A stretch of 64,000 nucleotides of DNA from an uncultured cyanobacterium (lineage in GTDB: Bacteria; Cyanobacteriota; Cyanobacteriia; PCC-6307; Cyanobiaceae), in assembly GCA_963697335.1 (NCBI GenBank), contig CAVONQ010000014.1, positions 1 to 64,000 on the forward strand. The letters run 5' to 3'. Shown here in pieces: positions 2,245 through 44,304 of the stretch (position 1 is the stretch's first letter; every line of letters starts with the position of its first letter). The position numbers were made by a program, and so were the translations under genes. Below the pieces are notes generated by a model. That model did not search any database, was not told the DNA's origin, and worked only from the letters and a program-made list of their open reading frames with translations.

Positions 2245-2505
2245 ATGACCGCCGAAACCAGCACCCTCGACCCGCGGGCCCTCACCGTTGAAAACGTGGA
2301 GCGCACCCTGGATGAGCTGCGTCCTTACCTGATGGCCGATGGCGGCAACGTGGAGGTGGTGGAGATCGATGGGCCGATCGTGAAGGTGCGCTTACAGGGC
2401 GCTTGCGGCAGCTGCCCGAGCAGCACAATGACCTTGAAAATGGGTATCGAACGCAAGCTGCGTGAGGCCATCCCCGAGGTCAGCGAAGTGGTGCAGGTGC
2501 TCTGA
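2245..2505 (+). CDS. nifU: NifU/Nfu-type Fe-S cluster scaffold protein
   Basis: [12 protein letters not shown] and GACGSCPSS motifs. Confidence 0.93.
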
Positions 2506-3005
2506 GCTCAGGCCTGCCTGCTTCTGGGGTCCAGCAAACCATGGGGAGCCAGGGTCCGTTGGTTGATCTCCTGGAAAGCTTCTGACCCCGCGCAACGCGT
2601 CGTCAGACCGTTGATCCCCGCTCGACAAGAACCCCATGGAGACCAGGGTCTGGACACGAGCACACCGTTTTGTCCAGGCCATCTCAGAACTGCGAGCTCA
2701 AAACAGGTCCATGAAGCTGGTTGAAGCCGCAACGCCGCCTCACGGTGTGGCTCCTGCCCGCGACTGAATAGAGCCCAATGGCCGTGGGGCTCAGTCAAAT
2801 CCACACTCTGCGGTTGGCTCTTTAAGCCCGGGCACTGCAACCAGCACCAGCAGCGCCAATGTGCAGGGTGACGCTGCTGTGAGCCGGGGAGAGCGGCGAT
2901 CTCAAGCTTTCACGCCGGCACGTACCCCTGCATGGACTGAGGCACCCAGGAGCCGCAAGCCCCGGCCAGGCCTGCTTTTAGGCTGGCCTGACCCGCCCCC
3001 CTGCC

Positions 3006-4277
3006 GTGCTCGATCAGCGCCTGCTGCGCAGCCATCCCGACCAGATCGTGGGCCAGCTGGCCCGCCGCGGCATGGCCGTGGATCTGATCGGTCTGCAGCT
3101 GGTGGCCACTGAGGAACGGGACCTCGAGCAGCGCCGCAGTGGCCTGCAGGCGGAGGGCAACCGCATCGGCAAGGAGGTGGGTCAGCTGATCCGAGGCGGG
3201 GCCGATCCGGGCGGGCCGGACGTGGCCGCGCTGCGGGAGCAGGGCAACCGGGTGAAGCAGCAGGTGGCGGTGCTGGAGGAGGAGGAGAAAGCCCTGCAGA
3301 GCCAGCTGCGCGAGCAGTTGCTCACCCTGCCCAACCTGCCCGCCCCCGAGGTGCCCGAAGGCCGCAGTGAGGCCGACAACGTGGAAGTGAAGCGCTGGGG
3401 CGAGCCGCGGCCAGCAGACGGCCTGCAGGAGCACTGGCAGATCGGCGAGCGTCTGGGCCTCTGGGAAACCGAACGCTCCGTGCGCATCGCCCAGAGCCGC
3501 TTCATCACCTTGCTGGGGGCCGGCGCCCGGCTGGAGCGTGCCCTGATCAGCTTCATGCTCGATCACCACACCGCCTGCGGCTACACCGAGGTGCTGCCGC
3601 CGATTCTGGTGAACTCGGCCAGCCTCACCGGCTCGGGCCAGCTGCCCAAGTTCGCCGAGGAGAGCTTCCAGTGCGCCGGCGACGACCTCTGGCTCACCCC
3701 CACCGCCGAGGTACCGCTCACCTCCCTGCACCGCGATGAGGTGATCCCCGCCGAGCAGCTGCCCCTGCGCTACTGCGCCTACACCCCCTGTTTCCGCCGC
3801 GAGGCCGGCTCCTACGGCCGCGACACCCGCGGCCTGATCCGCCTGCACCAGTTCAACAAGGTGGAGCTCTACTGGTTCTGCCATCCCGACCAGTCGGCGG
3901 GCGCCCTGGAGCTGATCACCGCCCAGGCTGAATCGATCCTGGAAGCCCTGCAGCTCCCCTACCGCCGCATCGAACTCTGCGCCGGTGATCTCGGCTTCTC
4001 CGCAGCTCGCACCTTCGATCTGGAGGTGTGGCTGCCCGGCGCCGGCGCCTACCGCGAGATCTCCAGCTGCTCCCTCTGCCACGACTTCCAGGCCCGCCGC
4101 TCCGCCATCCGCTTCAAGCAGGGCAAGACCACCCAGCTGCTGCACACCCTCAACGGCAGTGGCCTGGCCGTGGGCCGCACCATGGCCGCCCTGCTCGAGA
4201 ACGGTCAGCAGGCCGATGGCTCGGTGACCCTGCCGGCCGCCCTGGTGCCCTACTTCGGCGGCGACAGGATCGGTTGA
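3006..4277 (+). CDS. serS: Serine--tRNA ligase
   Basis: GQLPKF, LTPTAEVP, CFRREAGSYGRDTRGLIRLHQF, HTLNGSGLA. Confidence 0.98.
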   Translation: MLDQRLLRSHPDQIVGQLARRGMAVDLIGLQLVATEERDLEQRRSGLQAEGNRIGKEVGQLIRGGADPGGPDVAALREQGNRVKQQVAVLEEEEKALQSQLREQLLTLPNLPAPEVPEGRSEADNVEVKRWGEPRPADGLQEHWQIGERLGLWETERSVRIAQSRFITLLGAGARLERALISFMLDHHTACGYTEVLPPILVNSASLTGSGQLPKFAEESFQCAGDDLWLTPTAEVPLTSLHRDEVIPAEQLPLRYCAYTPCFRREAGSYGRDTRGLIRLHQFNKVELYWFCHPDQSAGALELITAQAESILEALQLPYRRIELCAGDLGFSAARTFDLEVWLPGAGAYREISSCSLCHDFQARRSAIRFKQGKTTQLLHTLNGSGLAVGRTMAALLENGQQADGSVTLPAALVPYFGGDRIG

Positions 4278-4356: not shown

Positions 4357-5445
4357 ATGGGCGTTCTCACGGCACTGGCGATCCTGGCGGGGCTGATCGT
4401 GGTGCACGAGGCCGGCCACTTCTTCGCGGCCACCTGGCAGGGCATCCGGGTGAGCAGCTTCTCGATCGGCTTCGGGCCGGTGCTGCTGGAGCGCCAGCGC
4501 CGGGGCGTGCAGTTCGCCCTGCGGGCCATCCCCCTGGGCGGCTTCGTGGCCTTCCCCGACGACGACGAGGACAGCCCGATCGCCAAGAACGATCCCGACC
4601 TGCTCACCAACAGGCCCCTGCACCAGCGCGCCCTGGTGATCGCCGCCGGGGTGCTGGCCAACCTGCTGCTGGCCTGGCTGGTGCTGGTGGCCCAGGGCGC
4701 GGTGATCGGCCTGCCGGCCGGCTTCAGCGCCACCCCGGGGGTGCTGGTGTCGGGCGTACTGCCGGGCCAGCCCGCCGCCGTGGCCGGCCTGCAGCCGGGC
4801 GATCGCATCGTGGCCCTGGCCGGCGAGGACATCGGCGGCGGCCAGCAGGCCGTGGCCTCCCTGGTGGAGCGGATCAAGGCGGCGCCGGAGCGCGATCTCA
4901 CCCTGGTGGCCGAACGCGGCGATCAGCGCCTGGCCCTGCGGCTCACCCCCAGCGATCTCGACGGCGTGGGCCGCATCGGCGCCCAGCTGCAGCCCAACGG
5001 CACCGAGTTGTTCCGCCCGGCCCGCAGCCCCCTGGAGGTGATGGGCCAGGCCAGCCGCGACAGCTGGCTGCTGCTGAAGCGCACCGCCGGCGGCTTTGTC
5101 ACCCTGGCCACCCACTTCGGCGAAACGGCCTCCCAGGTGTCCGGTCCCGTGAAGATCGTGGAGATGGGCGCCAGCCTGGCCCAGCAGGGCGGCGGCAGCC
5201 TGTTCCTGTTCACGGCGCTGATCTCGATCAACCTGGCGGTACTCAACGCCCTGCCCCTGCCTCTCCTCGATGGCGGCCAGCTCGCCCTGCTGCTGCTTGA
5301 GGGCGTGCGGGGGCGGCCCTTGCCGCAGCGCTTCCAGATGGCCTTCATGCAGTCTGGCTTCGTGTTCCTGGTGGGCCTCAGCATGCTGCTGATCGTGAAG
5401 GACACCTCCCAGCTGCCCGCCGTGCAGCAACTGCTCGGGCGCTGA
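4357..5445 (+). CDS. rseP: RIP metalloprotease RseP
   Basis: HEAGH zinc motif, PDZ-like middle, NALPLPLLDGG. Confidence 0.95.
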   Translation: MGVLTALAILAGLIVVHEAGHFFAATWQGIRVSSFSIGFGPVLLERQRRGVQFALRAIPLGGFVAFPDDDEDSPIAKNDPDLLTNRPLHQRALVIAAGVLANLLLAWLVLVAQGAVIGLPAGFSATPGVLVSGVLPGQPAAVAGLQPGDRIVALAGEDIGGGQQAVASLVERIKAAPERDLTLVAERGDQRLALRLTPSDLDGVGRIGAQLQPNGTELFRPARSPLEVMGQASRDSWLLLKRTAGGFVTLATHFGETASQVSGPVKIVEMGASLAQQGGGSLFLFTALISINLAVLNALPLPLLDGGQLALLLLEGVRGRPLPQRFQMAFMQSGFVFLVGLSMLLIVKDTSQLPAVQQLLGR

Positions 5446-34284: not shown

Positions 34285-36649
34285 ATGGCCGACTCCAGGC
34301 CCTCTGAGCTGGATCAACTCCGCCGGGAAAACGCCCGACTGATGGCCCTGCTGGAGGCCCATGGCATCGCCTGGCGCTCCAGCGGACCTGCCCCAGCTGA
34401 ACCCGCGCCCGTCTCAGTCCAGTCCCCTGCCAAGGGTCCTGTTTCGCCGCAAGAGAAGGTGGCGCTGTTCCGGCATCTCTTTCGAGGCCGTGATGACGTC
34501 TATGCCCTGCGCTGGCAGAGCCGCAGCAGCGGGCGCTCGGGGTATGCACCGTCCTGCGCCAATGAATGGCAACCCGGCGTCTGCGAGAAGCCCAGGATCA
34601 GCTGCCGCGACTGCCATCACCGGAAGCTGTTGCCCCTCACCGATGCGGCGATCTACGGCCATCTGGCCGGCGAACACACCCTCGGCCTCTACCCCCTGCT
34701 GGAGAACGACACCTGTCATCTGTTGGCGGTGGATTTCGATGAGCAGGACTGGCGCGACGACGCAAGGGCCTTTCTGCGCTCCTGCCTGGAGCTGGCGGTG
34801 CCGGCCGCACTGGAGATCTCCCGTTCCGGGGAGGGCGCCCATGTGTGGGTGTTCTTCGAGGAGGCGGTACCGGCCCGAGAGGCCCGCCAGCTCGGGGCAG
34901 CCCTGATCAGTCACACCTGCGCCGCGTCACGTCAATTGCAGCTGAGCTCCTACGACCGGCTCTTCCCCAATCAGGACAGCATGCCCAAGGGGGGCTTCGG
35001 CAACCTGATCGCCCTGCCGCTGCAGAAGGAAGCCCGGCAGCGGGGTTGCAGCGTGTTCGTGGATGACGACCTGAAGCCCTATCCCGATCAGTGGGCCTAT
35101 CTGGCAACCCTGCAGAGGTTGTCGGTGGCGGGGCTGCAGACCTTGATCCAGAGCGCCACGGGCGGTGCCCATCCTCTCGATCTGGCGTTCATCGACGAGG
35201 AGGACCTGGCGACCCCATGGAAGGCAGCGGGCCGCTACCGCGCTCAGGGGACCGCTGCCCACCTCCCTCACGCTCACCCTGGCTGATCGGCTCTATGTGG
35301 AGCGCTCGGGCCTGCCGCAGCCACTGCTCAATCGCCTGATCCGCCTCGCCGCCTTCGCCAACCCTGCCTTCTACAAGGCCCAGGCGATGCGCCTGTCGGT
35401 GTGGGACAAACCGCGGGTGATCGGCTGCGCCGAGAACTTCCCCCAGCACATCGCCCTGCCGCGGGGCTGCCTCGAACCCGTGCAGACCCTGCTGCAGGAG
35501 CTGGGGATCAACTGGGAGCTGGTGGATGAACGCCAGAACGGCTCACCGATGGAGATGGCGTTCACGGGCCAGCTGCGCGCTGACCAGGAGGCCGCCGTCG
35601 AAGCGATGCTGCGCCATGACATCGGAGTGCTGCAGGCACCGACGGCCTTCGGGAAAACGGTGGTGGCAGCAGCGATCCTGGCGCGCCGCGGGGTCAACAC
35701 CCTGGTGCTGGTGCATCGGGCTGAGCTGCTGCGCCAATGGCAGGAGCGGCTGCAAGCCTGCCTGGATGTCGCTCCTGAGGCGATCGGTTGCATCGGTGGT
35801 GGCAAAGCCAAGCCCACCGGCCAGCTCGACATCGCTGTGATGCAGTCTCTGGTGCGAAAGGGGGAGGTGAACCCCGTGGTGCAGGGCTACGGACAGGTGA
35901 TCGTCGACGAGTGCCACCACATCGCCGCCGCCTCCTTTGAAACGATCCTCAGGCAGGTGAAGGCCCGTCACGTGCTGGGGCTGTCGGCCACCCTGGTGCG
36001 CCGCGACGGTCTGCAGCCGATCCTGTTCATGCAGTGCGGCCCCATTCGCCACACCGCCCAGCGACCTGCCGGGGCGCCCCAGACCCTGGAACTGGTGAGC
36101 CGCACCCATCAGCTCCCAGCACTACCCGCCGATCTGCCGATCCAGGAGCTGATGCGCCGGCTGGCGGAAGACCAACACCGAACCGATCAGATTGTGGCGG
36201 CGGCGCTGACTTGCTGGGGTGATGGTCGCAAGCTGCTGCTGCTGAGCGAGCGCACGGACCACATCACAGCGATCGACGCTGCGCTGGCTGAGCAGGTGCC
36301 GAATCTGTTTCTGCTGCATGGCCGGCTGAGCGCACGCCAGCGCAGCGCCACCCTGGCTGCGCTGGAGGCGTTGCCGCCGGAGGCGCCTCGCATCGTGCTC
36401 GCCACTGGGCGGCTGGTGGGTGAAGGCTTTGATCACCCGCCGCTCGACACCCTGCTGCTGGCGATGCCCGTGTCCTGGAAGGGCACCCTGCAGCAGTACG
36501 CCGGCCGTTTGCACCGGCAGCAAGCAGGTAAAACCAGCGTGCGCATCATCGACTGGCTCGACCTCGGCCATCCTGTGCCGCAACGCATGTGGGAGCGGCG
36601 GCTGCGGGGCTATCGGGCGATGGGGTATTCGCTGATTTCAGATCAGTAA
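34285..36649 (+). pseudogene. AEP-like primase domain + SF2 (DEAD/ResIII) helicase fusion, frameshifted near 35221
   Basis: First frame: LAVDFD, SRSGEGAHVW, GNLIALPLQ; second (+1) frame: APTAFGKT, DECHH, GLSAT, GEGFD, QYAGRLHR. Confidence 0.8.
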
Positions 36650-36737
36650 CCCGGGCCGAGCTCCTGGGCCTGGCTGGGTTCCGACAGCTTGGCGTTCTGG
36701 TTGTGGTCATCGGCAAACGGGACCCAACGATCAAGCT

Positions 36738-38078
36738 TCACGCGTTGATCAGTTTCCAGAACCCCCACTTCGCCCCAAAGCTGTCATAGAGGCGCTCAAC
36801 ATAGGTGGCATGGTCAGGATGGCCCTGCCAGTCATCGATGCGGGCCGCCAGCAGTTCGCAGGTTCGGAGGTGCTCGGCTGCATAGCGGTAGCGCTTGGAG
36901 CGGCCCATCCACAGCGCGAAGAACACCATCGGCCGTAGCAGCAGCGTGGCCGCCAGGGGATGGTCGGCACTGAGGCGCTCGGCAGCGGCGCTGTGAATGG
37001 CGTAGGCATCGCCCTCCCACTCGTCCTCATGGGCCAGCACATGGCGGGCGGCACGGGGGAGGGCTGGCCATTCCACCAGGAAGTGCAAGCCCAGCAGGCT
37101 CACGGGATGCTTTTCGGCCACCTCCAGGGCCCGCTCTTCCGCTTCCACATCCTCAAAGGCTTCAAGGCGCTTGAGGTAATCGCGCAGGTGCGGGATCGAG
37201 AGCGTCCTGCTGAACCACTGCCAGCGCATCTCTTGGGCTTCCGCCTGCCGGCTCAGGGCCTCGAGCACGGCGATGCGGCTGTCGTGCCACTGCGAATCCT
37301 GAAGACCGGCGGCGTCTTCTGTGGCTCCATCGAGGATCTCCAGGGCCTGCTCAGGCCGCCCGGACGTCAGCAGGAGTTGGGCCACGCCTGCGGCGATGTC
37401 GCGCCAGCGCAGATCCTCGGCATCGAACTGGGCCAGGTAGCCCTCCACATCCCCCCGGGCCACAGCGATCTGGAGAAGCTGGGTGTCGCCGTCGCGAGCG
37501 CCGTGCTGGCGGCAGTAGCTGCCCAGCAGCTTCAGGCCCCAGTCGCCCAGGGCGTCTTTCAGCGCTGGCACCAGCGCATCGAACTGCTCATAGGTGTTCT
37601 CGGCCAGCAGCTCGGCGGCCTGCTGCGCCAGGGTTTCTGGGTCCAGCTGGGCCGCCTGGGCCAGCAGTCCCAGCTGCCCAGCGGCCCGCTCGAACACGCC
37701 GATCACCGCGCCGGTGCTGTCTGAGCTGCGCTCCAGCACACCCTCGGAGAGTTCAAGGAACCGCAGCAGGAGATCGCAGGCCTGCTTTGGGTCGCCGGCC
37801 GCGATCGGGCCTGTGATCGCCTGGAGCTGGGCTTCCAGATCACTCACCAGCGCCTTGCGTCTGGCCGAATCCACAAAGGTGCTGGCCCGATCGATCGCAG
37901 TCAGACGTTTGCGCACCTCCTGAGCGGCACCGTCGATCCCCTCGGCAGTGGCCAGGGCAAGGCGCAGTCGCCGCTGGATCACGGCGTTGCCACCGCTCAC
38001 CTCGATCAGCAGTTCCGCCAGCGCTGCAGCCCCCAGGGCTTCCAGGTTCCTGGCGTTGAGGGTGCGCTTGCTGGCCAT
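36738..38078 (-). CDS. Uncharacterised helical protein (DUF6880-like)
   Basis: 446-aa ORF starting MASKRTLNARNLEALGAAALAELL and ending RYRYAAEHL...FWKL; family from memory. Confidence 0.8.
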   Translation of the reverse strand: MASKRTLNARNLEALGAAALAELLIEVSGGNAVIQRRLRLALATAEGIDGAAQEVRKRLTAIDRASTFVDSARRKALVSDLEAQLQAITGPIAAGDPKQACDLLLRFLELSEGVLERSSDSTGAVIGVFERAAGQLGLLAQAAQLDPETLAQQAAELLAENTYEQFDALVPALKDALGDWGLKLLGSYCRQHGARDGDTQLLQIAVARGDVEGYLAQFDAEDLRWRDIAAGVAQLLLTSGRPEQALEILDGATEDAAGLQDSQWHDSRIAVLEALSRQAEAQEMRWQWFSRTLSIPHLRDYLKRLEAFEDVEAEERALEVAEKHPVSLLGLHFLVEWPALPRAARHVLAHEDEWEGDAYAIHSAAAERLSADHPLAATLLLRPMVFFALWMGRSKRYRYAAEHLRTCELLAARIDDWQGHPDHATYVERLYDSFGAKWGFWKLINA

Positions 38079-38081
38079 GGG

Positions 38082-38232
38082 CTACGTCAGGGCAGGTTTC
38101 AGACACCAGGGCCATGGCAGCCTGCTGCAGCTCAACGCCGCCCTGCAGCAGTCGATCAAACAGCTCGACCGCCGCCTGGCGTGCCTGCGGGCTCAGCAGG
38201 GCGATCAGCACGCTGGTGTTGAGGGAGATCAT
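38082..38232 (-). pseudogene. Internally deleted PIN/VapC toxin remnant
   Basis: MISLNTSVLIALL resembles the PIN N-terminus (xDTS) with D>N; only 151 bp; directly downstream of an AbrB antitoxin. Confidence 0.65.
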
Positions 38233-38245
38233 TGACGGCCCTCCA

Positions 38246-38485
38246 TCACCAGCGCTCACTGATGCGGCAGGCCTCGATCACCGCTGGGGTGAGGGGGAGG
38301 GTGGTCTGCAACTGGCGCAGATCGGCCACAAGAGCGAAGCGATCCAACCGCTGCACAGGCTCCAGGCTCAGTCGGCCGTCGGGTCCAACGACAATCTCGA
38401 TCTGATCGCCCTCCCTCAGGCCGGCCTGACGCAGGCATTCGGCTGGCAGCCGCACCGCCAGGCTCTTGGCCCAGCGGCGGATCAC
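38246..38485 (-). CDS. AbrB/MazE-type antitoxin (possibly degenerate)
   Basis: IRRWAKSLAVRLPAECLRQAGLREGDQIEI matches the AbrB fold (WGNS > WAKS); GTG start inferred. Confidence 0.7.
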   Translation of the reverse strand: MIRRWAKSLAVRLPAECLRQAGLREGDQIEIVVGPDGRLSLEPVQRLDRFALVADLRQLQTTLPLTPAVIEACRISERW

Positions 38486-38822
38486 CTGCTGGAAGCGCCG
38501 GCCGGCATCAACACAATGGTGACCCGGCTGGGACTGCGCCAAAGAAGCCAGCTCGGCCGCGGCCGGCCTGTTGTAGATGACACTATTTTACATTGGCAGG
38601 TGGTGGCTTCCATCTTCTCAAGGTGCCACTGCAGCGGCCCCCGTCCCGGGTAGAGCACCAGCGGGCCACCGGTCGGTCACAGCAGCCGGCAGCTGGCGAG
38701 GTTGATCGCCTACGCCAGGCCTTACATGAATGGGGAAATCTGCCAGGCCTGCGCCGTGCGCGTAGTGGGGATCCTGAGGGGCCGACACACACGCTGGCGT
38801 GAACCAGCACCTTATTTTCCGA

Positions 38823-39374
38823 CTACATGTCTTCTGGAAATGCGCGGAAATAGTCGGCGCGCAGCTCATCGTGATAACCCCAGCCAATAGGGACCGAAGA
38901 CCTCATAATGGCTTCCAGTCTCACTTTGAACGCGTCCCGGCTTGCGTCGGGCAAGCTGCAAACCTTTTCGATGGCGCGATGATACATCAGGTTAAGGGCA
39001 GCATAAAATCCTTGATCGATATCGCCGTAGTCGATCGTCAAAGCGTTTCCTTGCTCCACGAAAAAAGTCATCAGCTCCGCCTCTCCCCATGCATCGCCGA
39101 CGGCCTTGCTGTAGTCAGCGATGGCTTTTTTGGCTTTTGCAATCTGAATGGGCTTGTTCTTTTGGACATCCGGGTACATGCATTCGTTGATGATTTTCTT
39201 GTAGAACTCCAGCGGGTTCTCAACGACCGCCAGCCGGGCATGCAGAAAGGCCTGATTCTCCTTCGAGAGACGATAAAGGTCTGCAACCAAGTTGACCAGT
39301 TGAGGCGCATCCAGCTTCATGGCCTTTGCCTTGACGTCTGACCAGGATGCCCCAGCTTTGTTCCCTTTCCTCAT
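38823..39374 (-). CDS. Integron cassette 2 ORF, hypothetical (DUF6155-like)
   Basis: 183 aa, lower GC, ATG 26 bp after the attC R' box; C-terminal GWGYHD. Confidence 0.8.
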   Translation of the reverse strand: MRKGNKAGASWSDVKAKAMKLDAPQLVNLVADLYRLSKENQAFLHARLAVVENPLEFYKKIINECMYPDVQKNKPIQIAKAKKAIADYSKAVGDAWGEAELMTFFVEQGNALTIDYGDIDQGFYAALNLMYHRAIEKVCSLPDASRDAFKVRLEAIMRSSVPIGWGYHDELRADYFRAFPEDM

Positions 39375-39400
39375 GGGCTATGCCTTTCTTTCCTGCCTAT

Positions 39401-39525
39401 TACTAACGTTTGAGCTAAGCGGGGACGACGCCAGGACGCCAGGCCCGCGCGGTGCAGCATGTACCCCGGCCCCGCGCAGGCCTGGGGACCTACCGTTGGC
39501 GCTCCGCTTGAGCGAGGGGCCAGGC
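39401..39525 (-). mobile_element. Integron attC site (R'' degenerate)
   Basis: Minus strand: GCCTGGC-CCCTC-GCTCAAGC...GCTTAGC-TCAAAC-GTTAGTA = R''-5nt-L''(extra C)...L'-6nt-R', with a long internal imperfect palindrome. Confidence 0.88.
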
Positions 39526-39611
39526 CTCACCTTTAGCGTCCGTGTCGCGGTGCGGTGTGAGCTTAGTAGCATAAGTAAACATAGAATCAAATTTTTCTGT
39601 AGATCGTCACG

Positions 39612-40304
39612 ATGGTGAGAACTGTGAGAAAGCTGTTCGCTTGCCTTAATGGCGCACTTGCTCTCGTGACATGGTTCTTTCACGAGGCCATCAGGTCTTG
39701 GTTTTTCGATAAAGTGGTTCAGCAAATGAACTCCGTCGAAGCGGACTTGATTCAGTACGGCCCCCCGGTAATCTTTGCGGCGATCTGTATTTGGCTGCTC
39801 GTCGTGCCACGCCAGACGAGACATCCGGCTAAGGGTGCTGGGATCGATCGTCCGGTGGGGGAGAAGCCAGCGCTGAAGCCAACGATGTCTGGAGGAAGCA
39901 TATTTGAACCTGGCGCGCCAGACATGGCCAAGAGCCATACTGGAATTGCGATAAATGCGAAAGTCTGGAACGTTGGGGGTGCGTCCGTGGCGACGAGTTG
40001 GGCCTTGAAGGTCATCATTCCCGGTCGCCTTCCTGTGTCGGGCCAGTTGACTCAAATACCCGACTTTCTAAGTCTTAGCGGTGCCATCAATAGTGTAGTT
40101 ATTCGGGGTGACGACGCGCTTGACAGGAAGGTCGCAACGGAAGTCATTGGTGGCACGCCGATTGAAGGGACTCTGCTGTTCTACGTTCCGTTGCCGCGAA
40201 GTGCAGTGATGACGCCCGACACTGTTCTTAAACTATCGTTCAAAGACATTCTTGAGGTCCAGACAGTGAAGGCGCAGCGTCTTGGCGATTGGAAGCATCG
40301 CTAG
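39612..40304 (+). CDS. Integron cassette 1 ORF (inverted), hypothetical membrane-anchored protein
   Basis: 230-aa low-GC ORF with two N-terminal hydrophobic segments, between the probable attI and the attC. Confidence 0.7.
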   Translation: MVRTVRKLFACLNGALALVTWFFHEAIRSWFFDKVVQQMNSVEADLIQYGPPVIFAAICIWLLVVPRQTRHPAKGAGIDRPVGEKPALKPTMSGGSIFEPGAPDMAKSHTGIAINAKVWNVGGASVATSWALKVIIPGRLPVSGQLTQIPDFLSLSGAINSVVIRGDDALDRKVATEVIGGTPIEGTLLFYVPLPRSAVMTPDTVLKLSFKDILEVQTVKAQRLGDWKHR

Positions 40305-40349
40305 CGAAGGCGTTCGGATTGGGTGCGTGATTGGACGTAGAGATGCGAG

Positions 40350-40412
40350 GTCTAACTTATTCTTCGGCGGTTTCCGTGCACCACTCCCAAAGTCAAATCT
40401 CTTTCCGATAAC
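40350..40412 (-). mobile_element. Probable integron attI site
   Basis: GTTAGAC core (40356-40350); following GTTAGACCTCGC nearly complements cassette end GTGAGGCCTGGC; upstream imperfect direct repeats GTTATCGGAAA / GTGCACGGAAA. Confidence 0.6.
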
Positions 40413-40519
40413 CAACCGTAGATCATGGACTGCGTGGGTGTGAACGGTTGTGATTGCAGTGGTTTTCAGCTGATTCCCTCAAACCGTAGGACGTGTTCGC
40501 GGGACTGAGAACCACTCGG

Positions 40520-41100
40520 AACCAGATCCCTACGCCTTGCCGCCTTCGTGCTGGAGACCAGCGGCCCTGGTCGATGCGCGACACCGGCAATAGCCAGCAG
40601 CGGCTGATGCGCTTGCCCCAGCTCTCCCCGGATCCACTCCCCTGGCCGCTCCACCCCACCCTGGCAGTTCCTGACAGCCACCCTCGATGCCCAGGAACCC
40701 GGAGAGCCAAGCATGACCCTCACCATCGAGACCCTGGTGGCCGACCCCCAGGCGCCATTGGGCTGGCGCAAGCGGCGTCTGGATCAGCGCGATTACCGTG
40801 GGCTCAGCCAACTCCCCGCTTGCTGGTACGCCAGCCATGGCGCAGCCTTCGGCGAGGGTGAACTGCCGCACCTGGTCCTAGCGACTAGCAGGAGCTGCTC
40901 TACCAGCCGTCGTTGCCGGTAAGTGTGCGCACCCGCGTGACCGAAGCCCTGGGCAGCAGCCCATCCAATGAACCGGTGGTGCTGGGTCCCAATACCGTGA
41001 TCGACTTGCCGGAGGGAGCCAGCCTCCAGTTCGTGGAGATCCAGGCCCGCTCGTTGGCCGAGCACCGTGCTTGGCTGGAGTCGCTCGGCGACGACGTAGC
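40520..41100 (+). pseudogene. Degenerate fragment, possibly of a phage-portal-like protein
   Basis: Broken frames giving LPACWYASHGAAFGEGELPHL and VVLGPNTVIDLPEGASLQFVEIQARSLAEHRAWLE; resemblance from memory only. Confidence 0.35.
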
Positions 41101-41107
41101 GGCGTGC

Positions 41108-41349
41108 TCAGCCGATCGGAACGCGGCAGAAAGGTTCACGCCGGAAGCGCCGGTAGACATCGAAATCGCTATCCAGGCTGAGGGTCTCGGCGACATCCAG
41201 CCGCTCCGAGAGCGTCACCAGGGTGAGATCGGTGAGGTGATCAATTGCGCGGCGGTCTGATCAAAGAAAGCCACGACCGCCTGATGGAAGGGCTCCTGCT
41301 GCTGGTAGTAGCTGAGCAGGATGCCCGAATCAATCAGGATCCGCCGCAT
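41108..41349 (-). pseudogene. Internally deleted PIN/VapC toxin
   Basis: MRRILIDSGILLSYY...LITSPI joined out of frame to DLTLVTLSERLDVAETLSLDSDFDVYRR; the middle of the PIN domain is missing. Confidence 0.75.
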
Positions 41350-41507
41350 CAGCGCCGTTCCGCCTGTCGTGCAGTCAGTTTCTGGCCAAGCAACCGGCGC
41401 CGCTGCCAGCTCTCGCGGATCAGCGAACTCCTGTCCTGGCCGGTTGCGGCCAGGAGCTCCTTGAGGCAGTGCTCTGTTTCGGCATTCAGCCTGACCGTGA
41501 GCGGCAT
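41349..41507 (-). CDS. Ribbon-helix-helix antitoxin (appears shortened)
   Basis: MPLTVRLNAETEHCLKELLAATGQDRSSLIRE RHH pattern; TGATG coupling to the PIN remnant. Confidence 0.65.
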   Translation of the reverse strand: MPLTVRLNAETEHCLKELLAATGQDRSSLIRESWQRRRLLGQKLTARQAERR

Positions 41508-42112
41508 GGCCCGCAGGGGCTTACGCCCGTATGACCGATGAAGCGACTGCAGTACCGATCTTTGAATCAGGGGCCTCGACCCGCACGGTGTAGATCCACA
41601 TTCCGGCAACCGGCCCTGGCCCTTGGGCTTCTGCGAAGGCGACGCCTTCTCGCAGAGAAGCAATAGGGCGCTCGACGCGGGGCGCCCTTTCTATTGGGGC
41701 CGTGTCCAGCACCCGAAGACACACAACAAAGCCCGGCGACGAGGCCACCGGGCTTTGATCATGGTGTGGTGGGCGGAGCTGCTGACGCTGGCACCTGGGG
41801 CCAGGGTTCCAGTGGGGCTTCCCGATGGGTCCGGGGCACCTGGGGCGGTGCAATGGACGGCGACGGCGTCACACGCCAGGGAAACCAGTGATCCGTTGAG
41901 AGTGTTGGAGCAGGGGCCGGATCGTCAGCGCACTCCTGGCGCCTGCTCAGGTGGGGTGTCTTCCATGCTCTGGAGCCTCCCGGTGTCGATGAACTCACAA
42001 TCGGTCGGCCAGCCGTCTGGGGCAATAGGGCTTTATGCCTGTCTCAGCCAGCTCCGGGTTGATGCCAGGCGGGCCCAGCTCCCAGAGCTGCCTAGCTGGC
42101 CAGGGTGCCTGC

Positions 42113-43444
42113 TCAGCGCAGGCACGCGCGCACCAGGAGGCCATCCTTCGGCGAGGGGCTGGGGATGACCCTGAGCGACAGGTCCTGATCGGGCTCCAGC
42201 GCCAACGTCAGCTGTTTGAGCAGCCCCACCGCTAGCAGGCGGATCTCCAGCTCGGCCAACGCCTTGCCCAGGCAGACCCGCTCACCACCTCCGTAGGGCA
42301 GCAAGGTGACAGTGCTGTTGCCTGCCAGATGCCGCTGCGGCCGGAACACCTCCAGATCCTCGTTCCCTCTTCCATAGCGATGGCTGGCGGTGATGCTCAC
42401 CTGCACCACCCGATCGGCCGGAACCAGGACATCCGCCAGGGCAATCGGCTCCCGGGTGCGGCGGAAGAAGCCCCCCACCGGCGGGGTCAGCCGCATCACT
42501 TCCTTCACCACCGCATCGAGACGCGGGGCACGGATCGCGTCGAAGGCGGTCCCGGCCTCCCCCTGCGCAGGAGGCCAGGGCAAGCCGTCGAGCTCCTGTT
42601 GCAGCCAGGCCAGCTCGGCTGGATGTTGCAGAAGGCTCAGGAGCAGACAGCTCAGCGCAGAGGCGGTGGTTTCGTAGCCGGCGAACAACAGCAGCAGCAG
42701 CTGCTCCGCCACGTCGTCATCGCCCAGGGGAAGGCCGGCTTCATCAAGGCCACCGGCCAGCAGATCGAGCCCGCCGGCGGCGAGGGGCGCTCCGGCGGCA
42801 GCGGCGCTCTGTGCCTTCTCGAGCACGGCGCCCAGGCGTCGCAGCAGCCGTTGGCGGGCCTGAAGGGCTCGGGCGTAGGGGCTGCCGGGCAGGGCGAACG
42901 GGAGGGAAAAGAGGCCCTGGCACCAGGTTTCGAAATCCACGAACAGGGCATCGCGATCGGCGGGATCGAGGCCCAGCACCGTGCTGGCGATCACGCTGAA
43001 GGCGAAGCGCCTCAGCTTGGGCACCAGGGCCACGGGCGATGCGCCGCCGAGCAGCTCCCCGCTGAGCTCATCCACCAGCGCCACGATCGCAGGGCAGTAG
43101 CGCTTGAGGGCAGTGGAAGCGAACAACTGGCCCACCACACGACGACGGGCCTTGTGATCGGCACCGTTGCGGTTGGCCAGGGACAGGGGCCCCAACAGCT
43201 TCCGCACACTGTCCGGCCACCAGCCCTGAACCGCATCGCCCTGGGCGAACAGGTCGCTGATCGCCTTCTCCCCCCGGATGAACACGGTTCGCTGCCCCAG
43301 AAGGGTGGTGCCGTACACATCGCCGTAGCGCTCGAAGCGGGAGCGGGCGAAATCCGGATCACGCAGAAAGGAGAGGGTTTCGAGCACGCCGCTCACAGCT
43401 GGCGTGATCGGCAAGGGCCGAAGGGTGGCGGGATCGAGCGGCAA
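42113..43444 (-). CDS. Cytochrome P450
   Basis: AGYETT I-helix, EVMR, PYGGGERVCLG heme motif; TTG start with GGAG inferred. Confidence 0.93.
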   Translation of the reverse strand: MPLDPATLRPLPITPAVSGVLETLSFLRDPDFARSRFERYGDVYGTTLLGQRTVFIRGEKAISDLFAQGDAVQGWWPDSVRKLLGPLSLANRNGADHKARRRVVGQLFASTALKRYCPAIVALVDELSGELLGGASPVALVPKLRRFAFSVIASTVLGLDPADRDALFVDFETWCQGLFSLPFALPGSPYARALQARQRLLRRLGAVLEKAQSAAAAGAPLAAGGLDLLAGGLDEAGLPLGDDDVAEQLLLLLFAGYETTASALSCLLLSLLQHPAELAWLQQELDGLPWPPAQGEAGTAFDAIRAPRLDAVVKEVMRLTPPVGGFFRRTREPIALADVLVPADRVVQVSITASHRYGRGNEDLEVFRPQRHLAGNSTVTLLPYGGGERVCLGKALAELEIRLLAVGLLKQLTLALEPDQDLSLRVIPSPSPKDGLLVRACLR

Positions 43445-43581
43445 CCAGCATTCTCCAGAGTGATCTCCAGGCTGGCGGCCAGCGGCCGCCAGCGCGCCAC
43501 CATGGACGTTCCATGACCACCGCGATCCCCGTGTCCACGACCGAGACCACCACAGGTCCTGCTGGCGCCGGGGCAAGGTCC

Positions 43582-44304
43582 ATGGCAGCCCCAGCGCTGC
43601 TTGAGCGGCTGGCGAAGGTGGAGGGGATGGGGAAGGGCCGCCGTCGCCTGGTACTCCTGCTCCCCCAGCTGGGCGATTTCGACAGCATGGAATACGCCCA
43701 GGCCCTGGTGGCTGCTTGGCCCCAGCTGGAGGCCGCCGGCATCGCCGTGCTGGCCATCGGCATCGGTGATGAGTCCGGCCGCCAGCGCTTCTGCGCCTTC
43801 ACCGGCTTTCCGAGCGAGCGGCTGCAGGTGGACGCCGAACCCCAGCTGCATCAGGCCCTGGGGCTCTACGAAGGCCTGCGGCAGATCGGCGGCCCCTGGC
43901 CGAACCTGCTGCTGATGTGCGCCGGGATCGGCTCCCCCGGCACCCTGGCCGAGGTGCTGCGTGGCTACACGGGCGATCGCAGCGCGCCCCAGCGCATCGC
44001 CGACGACGAGACCATCCAGGCCGGCCCCCTGCCGCCGATCAAGGGGGCGTTCTTCGCCAGAGCTGGCGGACGTGGCTTCCAGCGGCCCTTTGAGCTGGCC
44101 ACGGTGCGGCTGCGCAACATGAGCGAAGTGCTGGGCCACTGGCGCACCTACGTGCCCCGCGACGACTTCCTCACCCAGCGGGGCGGCACTTTTCTCCTGG
44201 AGGCCGACGACACGCTTCTGTACAGCTACCGGGACCGCGGCATTCTCGGATTCTCGGAAACCATGGCCAGGCCGCTCAGTTTCCTGGATGCTTTCCTCGG
44301 CTGA
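43582..44304 (+). CDS. AhpC/TSA-like (peroxiredoxin-like) protein
   Basis: PQLGDFDSMEYA, LMCAGIGSPGTL, RPFELATVRLRNM, TQRGGTFL; start uncertain (43513 possible). Confidence 0.8.
   Translation: MAAPALLERLAKVEGMGKGRRRLVLLLPQLGDFDSMEYAQALVAAWPQLEAAGIAVLAIGIGDESGRQRFCAFTGFPSERLQVDAEPQLHQALGLYEGLRQIGGPWPNLLLMCAGIGSPGTLAEVLRGYTGDRSAPQRIADDETIQAGPLPPIKGAFFARAGGRGFQRPFELATVRLRNMSEVLGHWRTYVPRDDFLTQRGGTFLLEADDTLLYSYRDRGILGFSETMARPLSFLDAFLG

Follow-up and report, generated by a model that had tools for sequence, protein, structure and literature searches.

Why does a GC-rich hairpin separate two low-GC genes in the chromosome of a picocyanobacterium, and were these genes once mobile? The locus lies in the window analysed here, which comprises the first 64 of the 190 kb of contig C14 from a genome (G000) of 2.58 Mb with 68% guanine plus cytosine (GC). 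Across ~38.77-40.48 kb of the window the GC content drops to 0.49-0.57, and this islet holds a divergent pair of open reading frames (ORFs), ORF1 of 183 amino acids (aa) and ORF2 of 230 aa. A first-pass annotation had described it as an integrase-less integron remnant with a probable attI site, two cassettes and a canonical attC site. We conclude, with a probability of roughly 80%, that the islet (38773-40356) is a piece of an integron cassette array that has degraded, with two cassettes that are now immobilised. Such a remnant is ordinary in kind, a known kind of genomic fossil, and leaves the current understanding of integrons as it was.

Both genes stand out from the host in composition, as the annotation had stated. 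GC is 0.52 in ORF1 and 0.54 in ORF2, against 0.67-0.69 in the neighbouring genes and 0.68 in the genome, and GC at third codon positions is 0.59-0.65 in the islet ORFs against 0.81 in the neighbouring genes. The real integron cassettes of this genome have a GC content of 0.45-0.62.

The element between the two genes, here called attC_A, has the layout of an attC site on the minus strand, see Table 1. Every part of the layout reported before could be verified in the sequence, i.e., a 7-nucleotide (nt) R'' box, a 5-nt spacer, an 8-nt L'' box with an extra C, a 7-nt L' box, a 6-nt spacer and GTT, as could the observation that the conserved AAC of R'' reads GGC. The L'' box GCTCAAGC pairs with GCTTAGC of L', leaving one base extrahelical, and this L''-L' stem with one bulged base forms in the minimum free energy folds of both strands. 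The length of 125 nt lies within the range of attC sites, about 57-141 nt. Compared to the consensus GTTRRRY, the R' box GTTAGTA fits GTTRR and deviates at the last two positions, while the R'' box GCCTGGC does not match RYYYAAC and its R box forms only 3/7 Watson-Crick pairs on the bottom strand (pairing by hand).

Covariance models, which the annotation had proposed as a check, were built from attC sites of other genomes only. We fetched 80 loci encoding relatives of the integron integrase of this genome; in those of the Cyanobium type, intI is followed downstream by the cassettes, which share its strand. At 5/6 junctions of one such locus (L021) R'' reads as the reverse complement of the R' before it, and the core was predictable for 6/7 attI sites. 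A strict scan requiring both AAC and GTT was used to seed the attC sites of the relatives; genome-wide it gives 126 scattered sites and excludes the candidate by design. The first model, R1, consists of 19 attC sites, and its search of 86 loci (1.02 Mb) returned 75 sites at E<=0.01, from which the second model, R2, was made. attC_A is in neither training set. It is the top match in the window for both models: with filters off it is the best of 15 R1 matches in 30-64 kb, and R2 scores it at 19.8 bits (window E 0.0063), the runner-up in the window reaching 11.5 bits. The R2 run on the genome scored only 150 of 4460 first-look candidates, the model is roughly calibrated and its E-values are rough. 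By its own score alone attC_A is borderline, and the adjective canonical has to be given up, as AAC is missing, the R box is mostly unpaired and the score lies below the 25-73 bits of the real attC sites of the genome.

The ends of the element are more informative. The nearest real attC site (L012:13010-13082) comes from a metagenome-assembled genome of Cyanobium and belongs to a chain of attI and five attC sites in which the R'' and R' boxes agree junction by junction. It reads GCCTAAC, CATTC, GCTCAAGCGGA ... CCGCTTAGCTCA ... GTTA, and the arms of attC_A are identical to it over 11 and 12 consecutive nt. When 24 nt per end are compared, 36/48 positions match; none of 5000 random genome sites reaches this value, the highest being 28, and a real attC site compared to its best partner scores 28-46. 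We also scanned the whole genome for ends similar to 67 attC sites of other genomes, allowing any length of 57-141 nt. attC_A ranks 9th of 89 sites, directly after eight model-confirmed attC sites (37-46). Below it are two sites at 35 (one a confirmed attC), 13 at 34 (one confirmed) and 65 at 33.

The likeness to L012:13010-13082, an attC site of the sedentary 'inverted-intI' chromosomal integrons of Cyanobium and Synechococcus, extends to the box spacing (7-5-8 ... 7-6-7), the one bulged L'' base (G on the bottom strand), an R' beginning with GTTA and the location at a cassette junction. However, R'' is GCCTGGC in attC_A and GCCTAAC there, the stem is 70 nt instead of 18, the total length 125 nt instead of 73 and the R2 score 19.8 bits instead of 42, and attC_A lies outside any detectable array.

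The attC origin of attC_A gains support from evidence that is independent of its own sequence, i.e., the cassette status and matching junction of the ORF1 relatives and a second, decayed attC site in the window and in a sister species. There are 856 homologues of ORF1, the nearest 96% identical, and the family, conserved with 60-70% identity, extends through many metagenomes and named phyla (loci L103-L129), where it recurs as an integron cassette. Among 80 metagenome loci with ORF1 homologues, R2 places an attC site directly after the stop codon in nine and directly before the start in seven. Together these are 11/80 loci, all of them within the 29 loci of at least 60% identity, and four are near-identical copies. 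The homologous cassettes begin with G|TTCGGTG, and their R'', ACCGAAC, lies 2 nt after the stop codon and is perfectly complementary to that start. In the window the R'' position is also 2 nt past the ORF1 stop. From the upstream GTT to the codon aligned with residue 2 there are 29-40 nt in the seven attC-flanked homologues and 36 nt in the window. This spacing places the GTT of attC_A at the junction of the cassettes, the next cassette beginning at its TT as in the seven homologous cassettes.

The other end of ORF1 carries the remains of a second site, attC_B, which the annotation had missed. At the R'' position the window reads GGAAAAT, a genome of the same genus (G016) reads GGCGAAC and the cassette homologues read ACCGAAC. 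The ORF1 homologue of G016 has 89% nucleotide identity and is truncated at its 5' end by an insertion sequence (IS) of the Mutator family, whose transposase has 413 aa (G016 C8:25682-26923, locus L191). After its stop codon follow GGCGAAC, AAG, a shortened left arm, a conserved right arm and GTTAACC, which R2 scores at 10.5 bits (E 0.64). Aligned to this site, attC_B of the window is short of 41 nt, R' included, and for the stump (38773-38822) the attC model without filters gives no match at E<=10. Only cassette B and the flank to its right are common to the window and G016; upstream of the ORF1 homologue the counterpart of attC_A and ORF2 is absent. The right flank contains a sigma-70-region-2 gene that is whole beside the ORF1 homologue in G016 (Pfam Sigma70_r2, L191:5573-6130) and is also found in three metagenome loci; its fragments in the window are listed in Table 1.

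For cassette A, the GTTAGAC core that the annotation had placed ~950 bp upstream was found; its first T and the G of R' are 949 nt apart. Its continuation is near-complementary to the cassette end as described, GTTAGACCTCGC being the reverse complement of GTGAGGCCTGGC at 8/12 positions. Of the 9 nt that follow the GTT (40356), seven agree with the R'' extension in reverse complement. Such a match occurs at one of the 22 GTT sites in the 2 kb upstream and at 56 of 41,943 in the genome, i.e., 0.03 are expected by chance. The gene of this cassette, ORF2, belongs to no Pfam family and has only five other homologues in 5.8 billion proteins; in 300 other genomes of the same family there is one marginal match, with stops.

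A close strain, seen in a 52-kb contig of sequencing run X1, has the entire islet with the same GGC, at 26 substitutions and three indels over 2001 nt. ORF2 has a 1-nt deletion there, at 39761, and for this reason it may be decaying.

Table 1. Coordinates of the islet features in the window.
Feature	Position	Strand	Description
Convergent sigma-70-region-2 gene fragments	38705..38772	+	Two pieces of ~35 nt each (blastn)
Cassette B	38773..39406	-	33-nt leader, 183-aa ORF1 and attC_B stump
attC_B stump	38773..38822	-	R'' position GGAAAAT; R' and rest of 3' part gone by 41-nt deletion (alignment against G016)
ORF1	38823..39374	-	183 aa, intact, DUF6155-like, all-helical; integron-cassette gene family
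attC_A	39401..39525	-	Degenerate attC, 125 nt; GC-rich imperfect palindrome between both ORF starts
attC_A R'	39401-39407	-	GTTAGTA; GTT at 39407-39405
attC_A spacer between L' and R'		-	TCAAAC, 6 nt
attC_A L'	39414-39420	-	GCTTAGC, 7 nt
attC_A variable stem	between L'' and L'	-	70 nt, GC-rich
attC_A L''	39506-39513	-	GCTCAAGC, 8 nt, one extra C relative to L'
attC_A spacer between R'' and L''		-	CCCTC, 5 nt
attC_A R''	39519-39525	-	GCCTGGC; GGC in place of AAC
Cassette A	39407..40355	-	949 nt; antisense 230-aa ORF and attC_A at 3' end; GC 0.54
ORF2	39612..40304	+	230 aa; N-terminal hydrophobic stretch; strain-specific cargo
GTTAGAC (G|TTAGAC)	40350..40356	-	5' junction of cassette A (inferred); upstream without attI or attC context
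Low-GC (0.49) non-coding stretch	40357..40480	.	Left of cassette A, without attC or attI signal

The comparisons show the anatomy of the islet, ends homologous to real attC sites, relatives of ORF1 that are cassettes and a decayed attC_B common to the window and a sister species. They support attC_A as an attC-derived site that separates two cassettes, as the annotation had it. We suggest that an integron integrase (IntI) would once have inserted both cassettes by attC recombination at G|TT. Cassette A would hold a reversed orphan gene and end in attC_A, and cassette B would run from the TT of the attC_A GTT to the attC_B stump. Two A-to-G changes have cost attC_A the AAC of its R'' and thereby all but 3/7 of the R-box pairs, in attC_B the R'' is mutated and a 41-nt deletion has taken the R', and upstream of cassette A no site survives. 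The R and L boxes of the folded bottom strand are the binding sites of IntI, and cleavage takes place in the R box. Given the R-box mismatch in attC_A, the missing R' in attC_B and the lack of an upstream partner, neither cassette should be able to excise. The suggestion that the cassette carrying the GGC is locked in place would therefore extend, most likely, to both cassettes, as far as the sequence tells. ORF1 and ORF2 would then be fixed in the chromosome and depend on promoters of their own; the hairpin is flanked by the 86-nt leader of ORF2 and the 33-nt leader of ORF1, and a sigma-70 promoter consensus scan gives no site in 38600-40600.

Several observations weigh against this history. 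The R'' of attC_A lacks AAC, the most conserved feature of attC sites and present in 19/19 seed sites. R1 scores attC_A at only 12.2 bits, E 0.39 in the window, level with a spurious 28-nt match, and R2 gives it a genome-wide E of 0.25, after nine matches of 25-73 bits. Folding the bottom strand, another check that had been proposed, bears out the L''/L' stem with its bulge but not any unusual stability: the minus strand has a DNA fold z of -1.17 with 32/200 dinucleotide shuffles folding as well, and the plus strand -0.58 with 56/200. Fold stability compared to shuffles was uninformative for this GC-rich DNA. ORF2 is antisense to the attC orientation of its cassette, which is uncommon in cassettes. 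The start of cassette B, TTAGTA, has lost its complementarity to the R'' stump of attC_B, and left of 40356 neither R1 without filters nor the attI profile described below gives an attC or attI signal. Finally, attC_A was picked in the first place for its attC resemblance, and this resemblance is therefore partly circular as evidence.

The same absence of AAC, the genome-wide E and the fold values would be expected if the hairpin were a chance or regulatory GC-rich palindrome between divergent, horizontally acquired genes with no link to integrons, and its position between two gene starts is where operators occur. Such a palindrome would not account for arms matching a real attC site at a level reached by no random site, nor for a GTT that coincides with the cassette junction of the cassette-borne relatives of ORF1, nor for a second attC remnant at the other end of ORF1. 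Nor does the element match Rfam or recur in the genome, and this explanation, already disfavoured, is improbable. The annotation had itself named a REP-like (repetitive extragenic palindromic) repeat without any attC model match as the outcome that would speak against an attC site. What we see is a weak model match and a single copy: blastn with word size 7 finds attC_A once in the 2.58-Mb genome, with otherwise only chance matches of 24 nt, which does not fit the multiple copies of a REP-like repeat or a miniature inverted-repeat transposable element. In the related loci examined it is unmatched as well. It is also conceivable that attC_A is alive despite its GGC, either since IntI tolerates a mismatched R box, which if true would widen the known attC sequence space, or since the hairpin has been domesticated as a shared control region of the divergent genes. 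The same GGC in the second strain fits tolerance and domestication, and it fits recent common descent equally well; we consider a living site rather far-fetched.

If the islet is a degraded array fragment, as we prefer, its origin could be a piece of an array split off by rearrangement or deletion. An old array piece is favoured by the low-GC DNA left of the junction and by toxin-antitoxin remnants to either side (37840-38542 and 41215-41663). Alternatively, IntI could have inserted a circular two-cassette molecule into a secondary site, an origin favoured by the bare GTT. This would explain why nothing attC- or attI-like lies left of 40356, the genome encodes an intact IntI, and secondary-site insertion is among the origins of integrase-less attC sites listed by Cury et al. 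2016 (PMC4889954). However, the 124 nt left of the junction have a GC content of 0.49 and look foreign rather than like a host target, toxin-antitoxin remnants on either side are typical of old arrays, and with only cassette B and the right flank in G016 a joint arrival of both cassettes is not demonstrable. Cassettes at secondary sites have a bare GTT on one side without a full partner site and are immobile for that reason; they retain a full attC, unlike the islet, where both attC sites are damaged. We regard this origin as unlikely, though by no means outlandish. The least probable of the readings is the fuller one of the first-pass annotation, an integron platform that lost intI in situ and in which GTTAGAC (40350-40356) is the attI. 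CGGA, CCGCCGAA and ATA recur, as judged by eye, in the 26 nt preceding the GTT and in the attI of locus L019, and the core is GTTRRRY. The attI sites linked to IntI have the form CGGryCCGCC, 8 nt and GTT, and from six of them, or five without the site of this genome on contig C16, we built an nhmmer profile. The five-site profile ranks C16:4484-4515 (E 8e-4) and C14:77598-77629 (E 4e-3) as the top two in the genome, i.e., it recovers both real attI sites, while 40350-40385 is not among its 752 matches at E<=5000. Moreover, the distance from CCGCC to GTT is 9 nt here and 8 nt in 7/7 real attI sites, and integrons of this type have intI ~140-180 nt ahead of attI, both on one strand, yet no remnant of intI is present near the islet or elsewhere on the contig. 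The proposed attI is not supported.

The label integrase-less holds for the window but not for the genome. No PF00589 or TIGR02249 match is present on the contig, in agreement with the earlier claim that the window has no tyrosine recombinase gene. The recommended search of the genome for intI and further attC sites found an intact IntI, two attI sites and at least ten attC sites. The intact intI is at C16:4656-5735 on the minus strand (TIGR02249 466 bits, cutoff 265), and its product shares 70-84% identity with integrases from assemblies of Cyanobium, Synechococcus and Prochlorococcaceae. Its locus (C16:1-5735, L009) has an attI at 4482-4515 and an attC at 1067-1169 on the minus strand, after which the contig ends. 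In between (2301-4264) is a pair of an IS91-family transposase and a tyrosine recombinase that is duplicated at the start of contig C2; this integron appears to be interrupted by an IS and broken by the assembly. A second intI at a contig edge (C15:5-680, minus strand) is a pseudogene with a TAA stop and a frame change. Further attC sites of 25-55 bits are found at C9:7964, C2:311429, C2:313153, C1:5857 and C7:221426, mostly a few kb from contig ends, and cassette arrays seem to fragment this assembly. The one on C7 has a weak attI-like match 80 nt upstream (E 0.7).

One array is on the same contig as the islet, 37 kb away and on the opposite strand (C14:77593-83891; L192:3594-9892). Its attI (77598-77629, core GTTAGCC) lies directly 3' of a gene for the large subunit of a NiFe hydrogenase, after two TTATGCGG-type repeats, and is followed by five attC sites on the plus strand (46-73 bits), with no intI upstream of the array at 77.6-83.9 kb. 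The cargo comprises a CAP12/Pycsar-type TIR protein, a 679-aa papain-like protein, a HigA-like antitoxin and a DUF4160/DUF2442 pair. Points in common between the islet and this array with the C16 intI locus are low-GC cassettes and defence and toxin-antitoxin cargo, and the junction boxes follow the rule of an R'' that is the reverse complement of the previous R'. Unlike the C14 array with its attI and five well-scoring sites on the plus strand, the islet has decayed sites on the minus strand.

Cury et al. 2016 (PMC4889954) describe attC sites without an integrase as arising by rearrangement, loss of intI or secondary-site insertion, and state that some single attC sites may be degraded cassettes. 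There, a cluster of attC sites lacking integrases (CALIN) has at least two detectable attC sites within 4 kb, and single attC sites are discarded as uncertain. The islet resembles a CALIN or an isolated single attC in having attC-bearing cassettes, no nearby integrase and an IntI elsewhere in the genome. However, it has one weakly detectable site and a stump, with no intI on the contig, which makes it a single attC by that definition. Lone weak attC matches far from an integrase are routinely dropped as possible false positives. The present case offers a route to validate them that does not use the score of the site itself, i.e., the cassette relatives of the neighbouring gene, the position of the junction and a sister genome with intermediate decay. 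It also documents how integron cargo may turn into ordinary chromosomal genes in a picocyanobacterium, via two A-to-G changes and a 41-nt deletion.

The analysis further flags a DUF6155-like protein as a recurrent and widely mobilised cassette gene. The Pfam match of ORF1 to DUF6155 has an E of 8e-4 and is under the cutoff. Neither ORF1 nor ORF2 has a PADLOC or NCBIfam family, and the ESM Atlas returns only clusters of 'hypothetical protein'. An AlphaFold2 model of ORF1 is all-helical with a predicted local distance difference test (pLDDT) score of 91.5; Foldseek with this model against the PDB finds only generic helical repeats, with nothing at E<=0.001. A sequence profile search of the PDB had a chitinase as its best match (E 0.033), which was rejected as irrelevant. 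Literature searches found no paper for DUF6155 and none with both integron and Cyanobium in the title or abstract.

No empty site was found when 41 genomes, G000 included, were searched; 26 match parts of 36000-43600, and among the matches listed G016 alone matches the islet, over ORF1 only. The contigs of four sequencing runs contain no joined or excised form, though contigs cannot reveal rare forms, and those of runs X2, X4 and X5 hold only short pieces of the region.

In the wider surroundings, the low-GC stretch left of cassette A (40357-40480) may be the leftover of an older cassette. Between 38000 and 42300 no Rfam family matches at E<=1. The toxin-antitoxin remnants consist on one side of a MazE/AbrB-type antitoxin ORF (38246-38542) beside a PIN-like ORF, recognised by eye, that overlaps a DUF6880 gene. 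On the other side, a 44-aa PIN-like N-terminal fragment (41215-41349) follows a ribbon-helix-helix antitoxin-like ORF (41349-41663), both identified by eye and without a Pfam family. A stretch of ~215 nt (41766-41980) has many copies of 70-90% identity in the genomes of the same genus that were searched; it has no Rfam match, and a further copy in G000 is at C9:68818-69107. Finally, at 35165-38078 a ResIII/DEAD helicase (494 aa), with weak PADLOC matches to PbeA and type IV restriction, adjoins the convergent DUF6880 protein (446 aa), and this region may provide a defence-island context for the islet.

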